64,000 bases of DNA from Terriglobia bacterium (GTDB taxonomy: Bacteria; Acidobacteriota; Terriglobia; JAJPHL01; JAPKYU01), in NCBI GenBank assembly GCA_965223005.1, contig CBDCVK010000006.1, forward strand, positions 1 to 64,000, read 5' to 3'. Below are positions 1-32,981 of this stretch, in pieces. The position numbers and the translations under genes are program-made. How positions within the stretch are numbered: the first letter of the stretch is position 1; each line of letters opens with the position of its first letter. The notes under the pieces are model-generated. The model did not search any database, was not told the origin of the DNA, and was given only the letters and a program-made list of their open reading frames with translations.

Positions 1-563
1 TGGTGGCCTATGACTACGGCATAAAGCGCAACATCCTGCGTCGGCTGACCCTGGAAGGCTGCCGCGTGACCGTGGTGCCTTCGCTGACCAGCGCCGAAGA
101 GGTGCTGGCGCTGGAACCCGACGGCATCTTTCTCTCCAACGGCCCTGGCGACCCGGAGCCGCTCGAAGCGCAGGTCGACCAGGTTCGCCGCCTGATCGGC
201 CGGAAGCCCATCTTTGGCATCTGCCTCGGGCACCAGATTCTTGGCCGGGCTCTGGGCGGCAAGACCTACAAGCTGAAATTCGGGCACCATGGCGCCAACC
301 ATCCGGTGAAAAACCTGCTGACCGGGAAGGTGGAGATTACCTCGCATAATCACGGCTTCGCAGTGGATCCGGATTCGCTGAACCGCAGCCAAGTGGAGCC
401 GACGCATATGAACCTGAACGACCAGACGCTGGAGGGCTTCCGCCACCGCGCCGCGCCCCTGTTCTGCGTGCAGTATCACCCGGAGGCGGCACCCGGACCC
501 CACGATTCGCTCTACCTGTTTCAGGATTTCATGAAGCTGATGGAGGATTGCAAGAGTCGGTAG
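1..563 (+). CDS. carA: Carbamoyl-phosphate synthase small subunit, C-terminal part (gene starts before the window)
   Basis: Class I GATase motifs SNGPGDP, GICLGHQ, HNHGFAV, QYHPE; directly upstream of carB. Confidence 0.97.
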
Positions 564-597
564 TGGGATGAACGAACTCTGGAGCTGAATTCAAATA

Positions 598-3848
<3,251 letters not shown>

Positions 3849-27972: not shown

Positions 27973-28863
27973 TCAGAGCTCCCGGTCCGGAGCCGGCTTC
28001 GCCCGAAGGGAGGACGACTGGCGGCCATTAGGAAGCTCGGACGCAGGACGGAAATCGGTGCGCTCGACACGCTTGTGGTATCCCTGATTCTTGATCAGCC
28101 CGATGCGGGCGTGCCACCTTTCTTCGGCAAAGTAGGGGAGCCAGACACCGTTGACCGGCCTTTGCCGCACCTCCATGGTAGCTCCTTGACGGACTTTCAG
28201 CAGCACTCCGCCCCAGACGTTAAAGTCGCGCTTCACCTGGGCCTGGAACCGCACCACGTGCGCGGACTCGGGGTCTACCCAGCTCAGCGCGGTGATATGT
28301 CTCAGCAATTCGGTGGCGCGAGATTTGGACCGGTAGCTTGGCTTCGGCGTCAAGCGGTAGAGGACAGTTCGCCGTCCCTCGACCATCCGTTCCCCCACAC
28401 GTTCGAAGTCGATCGCCTTGGGAACTTCGCCGATCATCGTCTGGTAGCGCTGGTGGCGTTTGGCGGCACGCTGCACCTGCTTCTGCCAATTGTTGTCCTT
28501 GCGGATGTCTGGCCAGGGATCAGTCTTGCGCTGGCCTGTGGGCTGTCCGTTAATCAGCAGTTGCTTATACAGCGGCACGCCGTCCAGGTGGCAAACAAGC
28601 TCCTCGCGCTCCTCGGTCTCTTTCACCCGGCCGTCGTCGCGAAGTTTCTCTTCCAGGATACGCTGGCGGAAGCAGAACTGAAGCAGACGCTTCATGGCCG
28701 CCTGCTGGTTGGCCACAATGCGGGTGATCAGGGATGCATCGGGCGCAGCAGCCGGCTGCCTTTGGGAGAGCTCAACGCCGCGCAACAGTCCCGGCAAGGC
28801 CAGCACCAGAACGGCTGTCCATAGCAGCAGCCTAGTTCTTCCCTCGGGAGATGGTGGCATCAT
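27973..28863 (-). CDS. Secreted hypothetical protein (Acidobacteria-type, possible LolA/lipoprotein-sorting-like fold)
   Basis: Hydrophobic N-terminus; beta-rich pattern F.FE..GE...GR, WVD, GG.L.KV..G, WLP; start uncertain (28863 or 28923). Confidence 0.75.
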   Translation of the reverse strand: MMPPSPEGRTRLLLWTAVLVLALPGLLRGVELSQRQPAAAPDASLITRIVANQQAAMKRLLQFCFRQRILEEKLRDDGRVKETEEREELVCHLDGVPLYKQLLINGQPTGQRKTDPWPDIRKDNNWQKQVQRAAKRHQRYQTMIGEVPKAIDFERVGERMVEGRRTVLYRLTPKPSYRSKSRATELLRHITALSWVDPESAHVVRFQAQVKRDFNVWGGVLLKVRQGATMEVRQRPVNGVWLPYFAEERWHARIGLIKNQGYHKRVERTDFRPASELPNGRQSSSLRAKPAPDREL

Positions 28864-29230
28864 TGCGTCCGTGACTGGCGGGAAGCGGAACAGCTTCCGG
28901 CGCTCTACCTTAGCCTTACGCACCTCTGGCTATTTCGGTTCCATGCTTGCCGAAGATGGCGGTCTCAATTGGGGGTAGTTCTCGCAAGGCCAAGCCCTTG
29001 CTTATAGCATCCCTCCACCCTCAATACAAATTACGCCCGTCCGACCGTTGGGTCGAACGGCCGCTGTGTCTAACGGTTGGTGGCTATCGCTCCAGCTCGC
29101 GACCTAGCGCCTGAGTCTGCCTTGGTCAATAAAACATTTCTGTTGAATCTGATTAAAACATGTAATACGACAATTGAGCCTTTTTGGGGGAAGACCTTGC
29201 TGCAGGGTCTTTGGGGTGAAGGAGGGGAGC

Positions 29231-29548
29231 GTGAGCCGATTTCCGAACTACAAAATCATGCTGATCGTGTTGTTCGCGGCGGCAGTGGGTGCATGGCTTG
29301 GCAGCCAACCGGCGCAGGCGCAGGAGTCGTGCCTTAAGTGGAATGGCTGCTGCTTGGGTTACTGCAATATCCGCTATACCTTTTACTGTGCAACTTGGGT
29401 TTGCCAGGTCGAGATTTGCTCCACGCCTTCGGACAATCCGTATTGTCAGCCACCGTGGGGCGACTGGTATACCGACACTTGTGTGGGGTACGGCTGGCCC
29501 GCGTGCTCCAACCCTGCGTTTTTCTTCTGTCCGCTAACCTGCGCTTGA
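29231..29548 (+). CDS. Small secreted cysteine-rich protein (30-aa signal + 75-aa mature part with 12 Cys)
   Basis: RBS GGAGG at 29221-29225 before GTG 29231; signal peptide ending AQA; strongly non-random Cys/aromatic composition. Confidence 0.8.
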   Translation: MSRFPNYKIMLIVLFAAAVGAWLGSQPAQAQESCLKWNGCCLGYCNIRYTFYCATWVCQVEICSTPSDNPYCQPPWGDWYTDTCVGYGWPACSNPAFFFCPLTCA

Positions 29549-29557
29549 CGAGGCCAC

Positions 29558-30400
29558 ATGTCGAAAGCGTCGGAGCACAAAAGCCTTATGAGACCCAGAT
29601 TTCTGCTGATTCTATTGCTGATGCTGGTTGCTGGCTTGGCCTCGTTTCGGGCCGTCCGATACAGCCGTTCCCAAGCGGTTTTTGCCGAAGCGAGGAAAGC
29701 TTTCTTCGTCAAGATGTATGGGAAGGCCGGACTGGCGGATGATCCCACAAAGTTTCGGGAACGTGACTTTTTCTATGCCGTTCGCAGCGACGGTTCCTAC
29801 GCTCAAGGCGAGTATACCGAGCTTCCAAATGACGGCATGCTGATTCACAGCGGCGGGGTGACGCTGGTTCCAGAAAAGAGGATGATCGGGTTTACTCAAC
29901 GCACGCGGTCGAAGACCACCTTCCATCTGAAAGAAGAACACATCATCAAGCCCTATGCGCGCTTCACGGATTCGAACTGCGCCGTGCACCCCCTGGATCC
30001 CCGGCAATTCGGCGTCCTTGGCGAAGACACCATACTCGGCTTCAGGGTCATCCGTTTACAGGAAGTCAGTGGCGGCGATCAATTCTGGCGAGCGCCGGAC
30101 CTGGATTGCTATGCCCTCCGTAGGAGATTCGAGTACCGGAGACCCGACGGGACCGTGACGGACTATAGCGAAGAAACGGCAATTTCTGTGGATGTAGGGG
30201 AGCCGCCGCCGGAGCTTTTCGAGATCCCGGGCGACTACGTCGAGAGGGCTCCCTCTCAACACCATCAAGCCAACATGGCTGACTGGGCAGCCAGCCAGCA
30301 GCCACCTGTTGCCGTTCCACCCACCAGTCAAGACATTCAGCGAAAGCTGGCAAACAAGGACCAGCAGTACGAGACGTTAAAGGCCAACGCGTCACAGTAG
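29558..30400 (+). CDS. Membrane-anchored/secreted hypothetical protein, partner of the Cys-rich peptide
   Basis: N-terminal TM; W.AP.LDC..L and GEP...LF.IP..Y.E..PS motifs; begins 9 bp after upstream stop. Confidence 0.8.
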   Translation: MSKASEHKSLMRPRFLLILLLMLVAGLASFRAVRYSRSQAVFAEARKAFFVKMYGKAGLADDPTKFRERDFFYAVRSDGSYAQGEYTELPNDGMLIHSGGVTLVPEKRMIGFTQRTRSKTTFHLKEEHIIKPYARFTDSNCAVHPLDPRQFGVLGEDTILGFRVIRLQEVSGGDQFWRAPDLDCYALRRRFEYRRPDGTVTDYSEETAISVDVGEPPPELFEIPGDYVERAPSQHHQANMADWAASQQPPVAVPPTSQDIQRKLANKDQQYETLKANASQ

Positions 30401-30447
30401 GGCCGGGATCTCACGTCTACAAGCTCTTCTGAGCCGATTGTAGAGGT

Positions 30448-31662
30448 TTATCGGCTGGCCTGAACCAGTTTACCAAGGATCGCGGCGTGTCTGGCGCCAG
30501 TAGCGGAGGGCAGGTTGGCCGGGATGGCGCCAGTAGCGGAGGGCAGGTTGGCCGGGATTTTCTGTAGGGTGTGATAGGCCAGCACGGCGAATAGCACCGC
30601 CTCTTTGGCGTCTCCGGGGATCCCAAACTTCTCAGCGGCTAAGATTCGGATGGGCAGCGCGGCCGCCAGCCGCTCCATGAGAAATCGATTGTGGACACCC
30701 CCGCCTGAGATCACGAGGTCGTTGATGGGTCCTGGGGGAAAGCGGCGGATTGCAATGGCGATGGAGTCGGCGGTGAGCGCCGTGGCAGTGGCCAGCAGGT
30801 CTTCGAGCGACAGCTTCTCACGGAGCAGCCTGGCCACAAACTCGCGCCCGAACTCTTCCCGGCCTGCCGTGCGTGGCGCCGGCTGTCGGAAAAACGGGTG
30901 GCGTAACAGGCGGCTCAGCAGCGCTTGGCGCACGCGGCCTCGGGCCGCCATCTGGCCGTCGCGGTCGAAGTGGCGACGGCCGCCGGTGAAGTGCTCCACC
31001 AGCGCATTCAGCACCATGTTGCCAGGACCGGTATCCAGCGCCACCACATCAGCTGGCGCCGCGCCGGGCGGGATCAGGGTAACGTTGGCGATGCCGCCGA
31101 TATTCAGCGCCGCGCGTCCTCGCTGCCGGTGCCGGTAGAGCAGGTAATCGAGGAAGGGCGCCAGTGGCGCGCCCGTGCCTCCCGCCGCCATGTCAGCCGT
31201 ACGGAAGTCTCCCACCGTGGGAACGCCGGTTCGCTCGGCGATTATGGCCGGCTCGCCGATCTGCAACGTCGATGCCCCGCGGAAGCCGTGCGCGTTGCCG
31301 GCGCGGCCCTGGTGATAGATGGTCTGGCCGTGTGAGCCGATCAGTTCCAATGACCGCAGAGGGATTCGCGCTCTGGCGCAAGTTTTCTCAACTGCGCGGG
31401 AGAAAAGTTCCCCGACCAGGAAATTGAGTTGGCTGATTTCAGCCACCGAGATTTGCTTGGCGTTGCAGCTTGCGAGTAGAGCCCGGCGGACTCGGGTCGG
31501 ATAGGGAACCGTGCGGAAGGTTTCCAGGCGCAGACGGATACGCGAGCCGGCACCGTGGATGCGCACGATGGCGACATCGATGCCGTCCATCGAGGTGCCG
31601 CTGATGAGTCCCGCGACGCGGAGTCCGCCCGCGCGCATCCCCTTGCGCGGCCCTTCCCGCAT
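30448..31662 (-). CDS. anmK: Anhydro-N-acetylmuramic acid kinase
   Basis: GLISGTSMDGID, GSHGQT, DFR..DMA.GG.GAPL, NIGGIAN, DTGPGN, GGG.HN, KEA. Confidence 0.96.
   Translation of the reverse strand: MREGPRKGMRAGGLRVAGLISGTSMDGIDVAIVRIHGAGSRIRLRLETFRTVPYPTRVRRALLASCNAKQISVAEISQLNFLVGELFSRAVEKTCARARIPLRSLELIGSHGQTIYHQGRAGNAHGFRGASTLQIGEPAIIAERTGVPTVGDFRTADMAAGGTGAPLAPFLDYLLYRHRQRGRAALNIGGIANVTLIPPGAAPADVVALDTGPGNMVLNALVEHFTGGRRHFDRDGQMAARGRVRQALLSRLLRHPFFRQPAPRTAGREEFGREFVARLLREKLSLEDLLATATALTADSIAIAIRRFPPGPINDLVISGGGVHNRFLMERLAAALPIRILAAEKFGIPGDAKEAVLFAVLAYHTLQKIPANLPSATGAIPANLPSATGARHAAILGKLVQASR
30492..30557. repeat. Perfect 33-bp in-frame tandem duplication in anmK
   Basis: tggcgccagtagcggagggcaggttggccggga x2, encoding IPANLPSATGA x2. 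Confidence 0.95.
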
Positions 31663-32977
31663 CAGGGTTCCCGTGGGGGCCGGCGGCCGGGAGGGCGAGG
31701 AGGCCGCTCGCGGGGGCCGCGCGGCCTGTGTGGACGGCCCGGACCAGGACCGCGGTCTTCACGGCCGCGGCGATCGCGCCGGGGTCCGGCCCCTGGTCGA
31801 GCGTCGCCGCCGCCCGGCGGTGGCCGGCGGGCGCGCTGGGGGCGCGCCGCATCCGTGTTGAAGCGGGGCGTGCCGGCGGCCATGGTGCCCATGTCCTCCG
31901 CGCGTTCGTGCAGGTGCTGAATGGCTTGGCTCAATCGCCGCCAGTCCGGGCGCGGGCGTGCGGTCGCAGCTTTCTGTAGATTCTGCTGGAGCCCCTCGAC
32001 GCGCCGGGCAGCTTCCTGAACCTGCTCGCCGAAGCCGGACTCCTGGCTGGCGCGCTCCACCAGCGCCCGGTGTGCGGCCCGGATGTTCTCAGCCGAGCGG
32101 CAAACGGGCAGCAGGTCGCAGCCAGCTTCGACAGCGGCGACGGCGGCCTCGCCAATCGAGCGGCCGGTCAGCATGCCGCCCATCCCAAGGTCGTCGGAAA
32201 CCACTACCCCGCGGAAGCCGATACGTTCCCGCAGCAGCCCCCGCAGGAGCTGGCTGGAAAGGGAAGCCGGTTGCGCGGTCTCGCCCGTGGCCTCCAGCGA
32301 CGGATACCAGGCGTGGCTCACCATCACCAGGGGAATCTCATTGTGCAGTTCCCGAAAAGGAAGCAGGTCTTCCTCCCACATCTGCTCGGCCGGCTTTTCC
32401 ACACGGGGCAACTCGATATGAGTATCCTCGGACGCGCTGCCCAGGCCTGGAAAATGCTTGCCGCAGCCGACTATGCCCTGGCGGGTGAGGCCCGCCAGGA
32501 AGTTGCGGCCGAAGCGCACCACTTGTGGGGGATCCGCGCTGACTGCGCGGGGGCCCAGCACAGGTTCCGCCGGCGCGCTGGCTAAATCGAGCACGGGCGC
32601 CAGGTCCACATTGAGCCCGAAGCTGGCCAGCGCTTCCCCCACTAGCGCACCAAAATCGCGGACGAAAAGATCGTCGTTTGTAGCGGCCACCGCTCGCGGT
32701 GAAGGGAACGGCGCCAGGACGTTGCGCAGCTGGTCCACCGGGCCGCCCTCCAGGTCCATCGCCAGCAGGGGAGACCCGCCGGGCGGCCCGTGCTCGGCCA
32801 GCGCCTGGACAATCTGCTGGACCAGCGCGGCAAATTCGGCCGCCCCGGCAATATTGTGTCCGAAGAGGATTGCGCCGGCCGGCCGGATCTCGGTCAGCAA
32901 CCGCGCCAGTTCCTCATCAAATGTGTTTTGTTCAAAGCCGACCAACAAGAGCCGGCCGACGGCAGTTTCTGTGTCCA

Positions 32978-32981
<4 letters not shown>
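31662..32981 (-). CDS. nagZ: Beta-N-acetylhexosaminidase (GH3)
   Basis: DLEGG.V, APVLD, KHFPGLG...DTH, SDDLGM; between mutS and anmK. Confidence 0.88.

Follow-up and report, generated by a model that had tools for sequence, protein, structure and literature searches.

The 64,000-nucleotide stretch analysed here, referred to below as the window (Terriglobia bacterium, phylum Acidobacteriota; GenBank assembly GCA_965223005.1, contig CBDCVK010000006.1, positions 1 to 64,000), carries on its forward strand a cassette of two adjacent genes. The first encodes an exported Cys-rich mini-protein (29231..29548, GTG start, 105 amino acids; hereafter the peptide), and the second a membrane-anchored protein of predicted LolA fold (29558..30400, 280 amino acids, or 270 from a conserved ATG at 29588; hereafter the partner). 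As judged by sequence comparison, the two belong to undescribed families that form a conserved two-gene module. The fold of the partner and the linkage of the genes are well supported; binding, disulfide bonding, export and role are what we infer. Tentatively, the two products are taken to bind each other as cognates, the likeliest roles being those of a secreted bioactive peptide and of its periplasmic protector.

The peptide gene was found directly upstream of the partner gene in all three congeners. Outside the genus, linkage was scored at the 30 partner loci that derive from published genomes and for which upstream DNA was available. An open reading frame (ORF) was counted if it lay on the same strand as the partner, encoded ≤200 amino acids with ≥6 Cys (≥5 %) and a low content of Arg plus Pro, and ended within 900 bp upstream. 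Such a Cys-rich ORF was present directly upstream at 23 of the 30 loci, as against 34 of 1,559 proxy genes (2.2 %) in the window's genome under the same strict criteria. The first-pass annotation of the window had proposed exactly this comparison as a check on the pairing, which was thereby borne out. The binomial tail of 23/30 against 2.2 % amounts to 1e-32, a value that is indicative only, the relatives not being independent of each other. Loci in unpublished genomes (L051, L056) or at contig edges (L018, L058, L067), an anti-sigma fusion (L008/L012), weak phylum-wide matches of other architecture and repeat loci had been dropped before counting.

It is very improbable that the small ORF is non-functional or that its adjacency to the partner is coincidental. 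Cys-rich ORFs do arise mechanically: 230 of 13,257 six-frame ORFs of 60–160 amino acids in the window's GC-rich genome are Cys-rich, nearly all of them being Arg/Pro-rich off-frame artefacts, and under loose criteria 15.8 % of the proxy genes have such an ORF upstream. Against this stand the count of 23/30 relative to the strict background, the ribosome-binding site and signal peptide of the ORF, and a Cys framework that is common to several genera. Selection points the same way. In the comparison with congener L004, the mature part of the peptide gave a rate of synonymous substitution (dS) of 0.77, a rate of non-synonymous substitution (dN) of 0.20 and a dN/dS ratio of 0.26, with all 12 Cys residues retained, four of them through synonymous TGC/TGT changes; dN/dS for the partner was 0.31. 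By these substitution patterns both genes are real and under purifying selection, and are more than chance ORFs.

The reciprocal search was performed with a profile of 20 peptides against 401 genomes of the class. The profile matched 25 places in 20 of these genomes, and 24 of the places lie directly upstream of a partner match and on its strand, G462:C32 being the only one without a listed partner. Among the eight places that were absent from the building of the profile, seven adjoin a partner (one in an unpublished genome). The seven loci at which the upstream Cys-rich ORF is lacking are L016, L046, L057, L059, L060, L069 and L070; at all of these except L016, the partner is intact and solitary. 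A Cys-rich ORF is located 49 bp downstream of the partner at L018. At L016 (oriented 2134–3171, corresponding to L090:5015–6052 on the minus strand) a Cys module also lies downstream of the partner, where it forms the N terminus of a 345-residue secreted protein that additionally contains a further Cys-rich linker and calcium-binding-like repeats of the D-x-N-G-N-G type and has no Pfam match.

The surroundings of 20 cassettes were surveyed over approximately 6 kb to either side, 154 ORFs being scanned, and no third conserved gene, transporter included, was found in them. A modifying enzyme was found neither at these 20 loci nor among the neighbours in the window, as had already been pointed out for the latter. 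Genes encountered at single loci comprise one for a DsbA-like protein after one cassette and an HlyD-plus-ABC pair after another. The cassette is a self-contained two-gene module.

The peptide gene is preceded by AGGAGG (29220–29225), five bases ahead of the GTG codon at 29231, and is terminated by TGA (29546–29548). Its signal peptide (29231–29320, plus strand) comprises n-region and hydrophobic core and ends in AQA, with Q31 as the next residue. The mature peptide (29321–29545, plus strand; 75 residues) contains the core motif CQVEIC, 12 Cys, 5 Trp, 6 Tyr and 4 Phe (15 aromatic residues, 20 %) and has a net charge of −3; Cys makes up 16 % of it, with one CC and no CxC or CxxC runs. These data agree with the first-pass annotation, which had recorded a good ribosome-binding site, the GTG start, a signal peptide of 30 residues with an AQA site, and the same residue counts and charge.

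Alignment of the 20 peptides with MAFFT gave six Cys columns that are invariant in 20/20 sequences (C40, C41, C58, C63, C72 and C84 in the numbering of the window's peptide); among them are a C-x4-C core (CQVEIC here, frequently CExDxC elsewhere) and a Cys ladder that recurs at the C terminus. On the strength of this shared framework, the peptides form one family by common descent. The aligned sequences contain 8–15 Cys, and the number is even in 17 of 20, in keeping with the even count that had been predicted. All are aromatic-rich, and 19 of 20 are anionic, with charges of −1 to −13. Class II bacteriocins are typically cationic and amphiphilic. The negative charge, which the first-pass annotation had taken to speak against a classical cationic antimicrobial, characterises the family as a whole. 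Hypervariability of the peptide, also predicted, was not observed: outside the genus, identity to the window's peptide is 19–34 %, similar to the 20–37 % found for the partners, and within the genus the peptide is under purifying selection. A clear canonical signal peptide was recognised in 19 of the 26 peptide ORFs collected.

Database searches with the peptide returned little. Neither Pfam nor NCBIfam, bufferin-type models included, contained a match, and the 20-peptide profile matched no PDB sequence at E values of up to 1. Homologue searches with the single sequence and with the profile yielded close relatives only (two), and the ESM Atlas gave nothing usable. An AlphaFold model of the peptide, built from the alignment with 20 relatives, had a mean predicted local distance difference test score (pLDDT) of 60.5 overall and of about 50 in the mature part and is unreliable.

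The first-pass annotation had suggested a disulfide-knotted peptide with up to six bonds. The even Cys number in 17 of 20 relatives is in line with this, and the inventory of oxidative-folding genes weakens it for the window's genome. No match to DSBA (PF01323), Thioredoxin_4 (PF13462), DsbB, VKOR or MauE (PF07291) was obtained in the window's genome (completeness 96.3 %). MauE was likewise not matched by any neighbouring ORF at the surveyed loci from published genomes. Of 41 relatives, 39 possess Thioredoxin_4, the exceptions being the window's genome and a congener of 62 % completeness; the other two congeners contain only DsbA-like fragments, one with an in-frame stop and one of 29 residues, and VKOR was found in none of six genomes of the family. 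From these gene inventories, the customary machinery for disulfide formation has apparently been lost in the genus. A conserved exported protein with 12 Cys in a lineage in which no known disulfide enzyme was found raises a second, independent question of folding.

These observations bear on metal handling, according to which the Cys residues would remain reduced and serve as ligands of a soft metal (Cu, Zn, Fe or Cd), with the partner serving as a dock or chaperone. Twelve Cys residues together with a net negative charge would suit such a role, as would the missing oxidative-folding genes and a gene with a PCYCGC motif that follows the partner at L077. It is nevertheless quite improbable, given a Cys content of only 16 %, a single CC, the absence of CxC and CxxC runs, the 20 % of aromatic residues and an even-Cys bias (17/20) that points to disulfides. 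Moreover, no metal transporter or regulator lies consistently near the cassettes in the 20 surveyed loci, neither bufferin-type nor other NCBIfam or Pfam models match, and an MNIO gene is absent.

Two known groups of metal-binding Cys-rich products were considered separately and rejected. Metallothioneins are richer in Cys and poor in aromatic residues, and the Cys content of 16 % and the aromatic-rich composition of the peptide do not fit them. Bufferins are MNIO-modified, Cys-rich, copper-binding ribosomally synthesised and post-translationally modified peptides with Sec signal peptides. The peptide resembles them in being a small Sec-exported protein, bufferins having 6 or 12 Cys. It differs in that DUF692/MNIO and DUF2063 genes are absent from the window neighbours and the 20 surveyed loci, their place being taken by the LolA-fold partner, and in that no family match was obtained.

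The partner ORF of 280 codons contains exactly two Cys (C141 and C184) and the motifs WRAPDLDC and GEPPPELFEIPGDY; the W-x-A-P-x-L-x-C and G-E-P motifs sit within the half-barrel domain described below. Length, membrane anchor, Cys pair and motifs had all been listed in the first-pass annotation and are present in the sequence. The gap of 9 bp given there between the peptide stop codon and the partner on the same strand is correct for the ATG at 29558. In the orthologues, the start lies at the Met corresponding to residue 11 here (ATG 29588), so that the partner start and with it the 9-bp gap are uncertain; the orthologues favour the downstream ATG, which lies 39 bp from the peptide stop codon.

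Three elements, all on the plus strand, were assigned in the partner. An N-terminal hydrophobic helix (residues 13–41, 29594..29680), predicted by AlphaFold and coinciding with the hydrophobic run FLLILLLMLVAGLASF, is interpreted as a signal anchor and leaves a cytoplasmic part of approximately 10–12 residues, an output domain being absent. It is followed by a predicted half-barrel of the LolA superfamily (residues ~46–233, 29693..30256), assigned from the AlphaFold model and structure searches. Cys141 (29978–29980) and Cys184 (30107–30109) lie inside this domain and are invariant in the family; the pair is not a CxxC redox motif. A C-terminal helical tail (helices 232–246 and 258–278, 30251..30391) with conserved P232 and Y271 completes the protein.

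The AlphaFold2 model of the partner was computed from a profile alignment and reached a pLDDT of 84.5 and a predicted template modelling score of 0.75. It consists of the helix 13–41, 11–12 strands over residues 49–213 (pLDDT mostly >90) and the helices 232–246 and 258–278. When the model was compared with the PDB by Foldseek, LolA, LolA3, LolB, RseB, MucB, ependymin-related proteins, VioE and 2yzy were the leading matches (E values 2e-7 to 2e-5). A search independent of Foldseek returned the same group, with Z scores of 11.8 for 2yzy, 11.6 for EPD-BCP1, 11.5 for EPDR, 11.1 for VioE, 10.8 for LolA, 10.6 for MucB and 9.2 for RseB. The matches of this second search comprise 138–165 aligned residues at root-mean-square deviations of 3.1–4.9 and extend from residue 40 or 46 of the model to about residue 233. 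According to the model, the partner is an open half-barrel of the LolA/RseB/ependymin type and an anchored member of the LolA structural superfamily outside its curated families. On this point the first-pass annotation has to be amended, the predicted fold of the partner being a recognisable one.

At the level of sequence, no match of the partner to Pfam or NCBIfam was obtained at E values of up to 1; PADLOC gave none, and no relative in the PDB was found by sequence profile. DUF4412 was matched weakly by two of 48 partner relatives (best E value 0.003, below the family cut-off), and the nearest clusters in the ESM Atlas carry DUF4412 as well (scores 0.91–0.92). A full-text literature search found no description of such a Cys-rich peptide and LolA-fold pair, the matching passages of PMC12419801 being unrelated to it. 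The first-pass annotation had not recognised a described system, and neither protein indeed maps to a characterised family in Pfam, NCBIfam, PDB or PADLOC.

The hallmark of the LolA/LolB superfamily is an open antiparallel beta half-barrel enclosing a hydrophobic cavity. The partner shares with the superfamily its predicted half-barrel fold and an extracytoplasmic location, and differs from the curated families in having no Pfam or NCBIfam match of its own. LolA is a soluble periplasmic lipoprotein carrier that works with LolCDE and is essential and near-universal in two-membrane bacteria. The partner, in contrast, is attached by a helix and is neither soluble nor lipidated, possesses an additional helical tail and the invariant Cys pair, is patchy in its distribution (61 of 401 class genomes) and is not encoded with lolCDE.

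A word-indexed search for relatives of the partner returned nine. When a profile built from 14 sequences was searched against 1.84 billion representatives, 2,933 clusters (50 % identity) were found at E values of up to 1e-3, 1,982 at 1e-10 and 367 at 1e-30, almost all of them of 240–280 amino acids. Ten clusters were looked up and, where named, were "hypothetical protein", apart from one longer member annotated as "TonB family protein". A profile of 48 sequences showed G79, C141, C184, P216 and P232 to be invariant. With this profile, 61 of the 401 sampled class genomes (a tally that takes in four unpublished genomes) gave matches at E values of up to 1e-12, the highest copy number in any one genome being four. 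In the phylum-wide sample, 26 of 401 genomes matched the partner profile at E values of up to 1e-3; the weak matches there have other architectures, with DUF4412, EF-hand or TonB_C domains. A scan of genome contigs with the single partner protein retrieved one close relative, and no plasmid match was found by tblastn. The description of the cassette as an orphan is not compatible with a partner family of 2,933 clusters. What remains of the original proposal is a secreted Cys-rich peptide with a dedicated partner, which passed the linkage test; the orphan status and the hypervariability had to be given up.

RseB and MucB are periplasmic sensors that bind the anti-sigma factors RseA and MucA. 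The partner differs from them in its genetic setting, its gene accompanying that of a Cys-rich peptide instead of rpoE-rseA; near the cassette in the window, sigma and anti-sigma genes are absent. A likeness exists in a distant relative: at L008/L012, a gene for an extracytoplasmic function (ECF)-type sigma factor (362–922, plus strand) is followed by one for an anti-sigma-like membrane protein of 282 residues (919–1767, plus strand), the outer domain of which is homologous to the LolA-fold domain of the partner (motif WFAPGLDC). A Cys-rich ORF does not adjoin these genes.

This relative would lend itself to an explanation in which the mini-protein acts as a diffusible cue for which the LolA-fold domain provides a membrane-bound receptor that passes information to a regulator. 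In its favour are the occurrence of this domain as the outer portion of an anti-sigma-like protein whose gene adjoins one for an ECF sigma factor, and the existence of RseB and MucB as sensors of this fold; genes with an AraC-type helix-turn-helix adjoin four of the 20 surveyed cassettes, and the solitary partners could be eavesdropping receptors. Such a function is improbable for the partner itself, with its cytoplasmic part of approximately 10–12 residues and no output domain. A regulator is adjacent neither in the window nor at 16 of the 20 loci, and the sigma-linked form was found once, and then without a Cys-rich ORF.

Several copies of the cassette show a damaged peptide gene next to an intact partner. 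At L065 an in-frame stop directly follows the signal peptide, and at L009 a frameshift lies between the signal peptide and the Cys domain. Two tandem cassettes occur in G462:C79, where the partners are 39 % and the peptides 45 % identical and one copy carries a TAG inside the peptide match. Strain contigs with 97.5 % identity to the window (variants X19 and X20, from two metatranscriptome libraries of one study) contain a 4-nt insertion behind 29382 that creates TTC-TGA after peptide codon 51; for the partner, only substitutions and no insertions or deletions are listed. At L086 the cassette is flanked by a transposase and a group II intron maturase. By analogy, the patchy, multi-copy and sometimes mobile spread, the solitary partners and the decayed peptide genes resemble the behaviour of toxin/immunity genes.

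The following mechanism is conceivable. The peptide would be exported by the Sec pathway as an anionic, aromatic-rich mini-protein with a conserved Cys framework, probably locked by disulfides. The partner would span the inner membrane with its one N-terminal helix and expose its body, an open half-barrel of the LolA/RseB type, to the periplasm. Since their co-inheritance is tight and widespread, the two products would meet in this compartment, where the half-barrel would bind the mini-protein, either the cell's own or a related one arriving from outside. Folds of this type shield hydrophobic ligands, and the peptide is small, aromatic-rich and rigid-looking; RseB and MucB are solved cases in which this fold binds a protein segment (title of 6jau). 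The pair would then represent a secreted antagonistic peptide and its cognate protector, comparable with a bacteriocin and an anchored periplasmic immunity protein. Protection is favoured over the alternatives because of the resemblance to toxin/immunity genes described above (patchy, multi-copy and mobile spread, solitary partners, decayed peptides), and it is put forward as a possible rather than as an established function.

A number of points weigh against a protector. Unlike the majority of membrane-active bacteriocins, the peptides carry a negative net charge. Where cells have two membranes, a Sec signal by itself leads no further than the periplasm, and a route across the outer membrane was not found to be encoded near the cassette, either among the window neighbours or at the 20 loci. 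Purifying selection within the genus is similar for both genes (dN/dS 0.26 and 0.31), and signs of an arms race are lacking. A receptor or a general chaperone would account for solitary partners just as well, and the AraC-type genes beside four of 20 cassettes hint at regulation or signalling. Disulfide locking of the 12-Cys peptide is uncertain in the window's genome, and the predicted structure of the peptide is too unreliable in its mature part (pLDDT ~50) to be of help. Finally, one of the RNA-library contigs from the strain with the 4-nt insertion (1,141 nt) spans 29254–30386 and thereby both genes; it is compatible with co-transcription, contigs from RNA libraries being no proof of transcription. 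No contig of the RNA libraries covers 28900–29237, a region that is covered by a DNA run; both RNA runs stem from one study, and no transcript start was drawn from them.

Some of the same observations would be explained by a carrier or holdase, that is, by an anchored LolA-fold partner that shields the hydrophobic, aromatic-rich mini-protein once it has been exported by Sec and then assists its folding or passes it to the outer membrane or surface of the cell; there the peptide would serve its producer in a structural, adhesive or surface-coating capacity. In the solved structures of LolA and LolB this fold carries cargo that is hydrophobic, and aromatic residues account for 20 % of the peptide. 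The tight coupling of the genes in the order client then helper, the purifying selection on both and the missing route of export across the outer membrane are consistent with this, and the two invariant Cys residues of the partner would make a private folding helper sensible in a genome in which DsbA, DsbB and VKOR were not found. A carrier is still rather unlikely. Intact partners at loci where the peptide gene is missing or broken would not be expected of a helper that serves one client only; the patchy distribution, the multiple copies and the diverged tandem copies are better suited to an accessory trait of conflict or communication than to envelope structure; and the Cys pair of the partner lacks the CxxC arrangement of a redox motif.

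For the favoured pair of bioactive peptide and protector, the closest comparison is with Sec-dependent bacteriocins that have an immunity gene next to them. Anchored periplasmic immunity proteins are known, those of the colicin M and pesticin type being examples. The cassette has in common with such systems that a gene for a small exported peptide is followed by, and co-inherited with, one for a membrane-associated protein, and that its occurrence is patchy, multi-copy and sometimes mobile, with solitary immunity-like genes and decayed peptide genes. It differs in the anionic character of its peptides (net −3 in the window) and their 8–15 Cys, and in its partner, which is a LolA-fold protein of about 270 residues rather than a small helical membrane protein. 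In addition, the producing cell is bounded by two membranes, and genes for an export system are absent from the vicinity.

If the proposed pairing is correct, it would be the first instance of a LolA fold as a specific binder (immunity protein or receptor) of a folded peptide instead of lipid tails, and the peptides would constitute a new family of weapons or signals used by bacteria, with natural variants numbering in the thousands. The predicted half-barrel provides a testable mechanism in the form of a hydrophobic clamp on the peptide. Small exported Cys-rich proteins are central to defence, venom and signalling in eukaryotes and are barely charted in bacteria. A weapon with its protector would represent a new source of stable bioactive peptides from the abundant and hard-to-culture Acidobacteria; a cargo with its carrier would extend LolA-type transport from lipoproteins to unlipidated mini-proteins. 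It is conceivable, if doubtful, that Acidobacteria and perhaps other soil or marine phyla harbour a large unrecognised class of Sec-exported, anionic, disulfide-rich mini-proteins, each with a membrane-tethered LolA-fold recogniser.

The cassette lies in an AT-richer patch, as had been noted, with a G+C content of 0.53–0.57 over 28800–30200 compared with 0.60–0.70 in the flanks. A divergent intergenic region (28924..29230) presumably contains the promoter in addition to the ribosome-binding site. A sigma-70-type promoter or an intrinsic terminator was not found in 28850–30650, nor was an Rfam match in 28800–30600. Both neighbours are encoded on the opposite strand, in agreement with the first-pass annotation. 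The divergent upstream neighbour is an ORF of 316 codons (27973–28923, minus strand) with a hydrophobic N-terminal segment and without Pfam, NCBIfam or PADLOC matches; a relationship to the partner family was not detected (hhalign probability 0.7 %). Convergent on the downstream side are a gene for AnmK (30448–31662, minus strand) and then those for a GH3 hydrolase and MutS, and an amino-acid permease gene is situated further upstream of the cassette.

In another genome of the family, an ORF of 176 codons (L005:2665–3195, minus strand) is located just upstream of the cassette; its product contains 36 Cys in a strict C-x3-C period, is rich in Glu, Gln and Ser and shows no obvious signal peptide. 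In the window, the GH3 gene (31662–32981, minus strand), the end of which adjoins the start of the AnmK gene at 31662, terminates in a long Arg/Pro/Gly-rich tail, the G+C content being 0.70–0.77 at 31400–32000. The C-terminal part of the AnmK gene contains a perfect 33-bp tandem duplication (30492–30558, minus strand; 2.0 copies, 100 % match) that repeats IPANLPSATGA, and this duplication is polymorphic among strains, because contigs from one RNA run and one DNA run skip exactly 33 bases.

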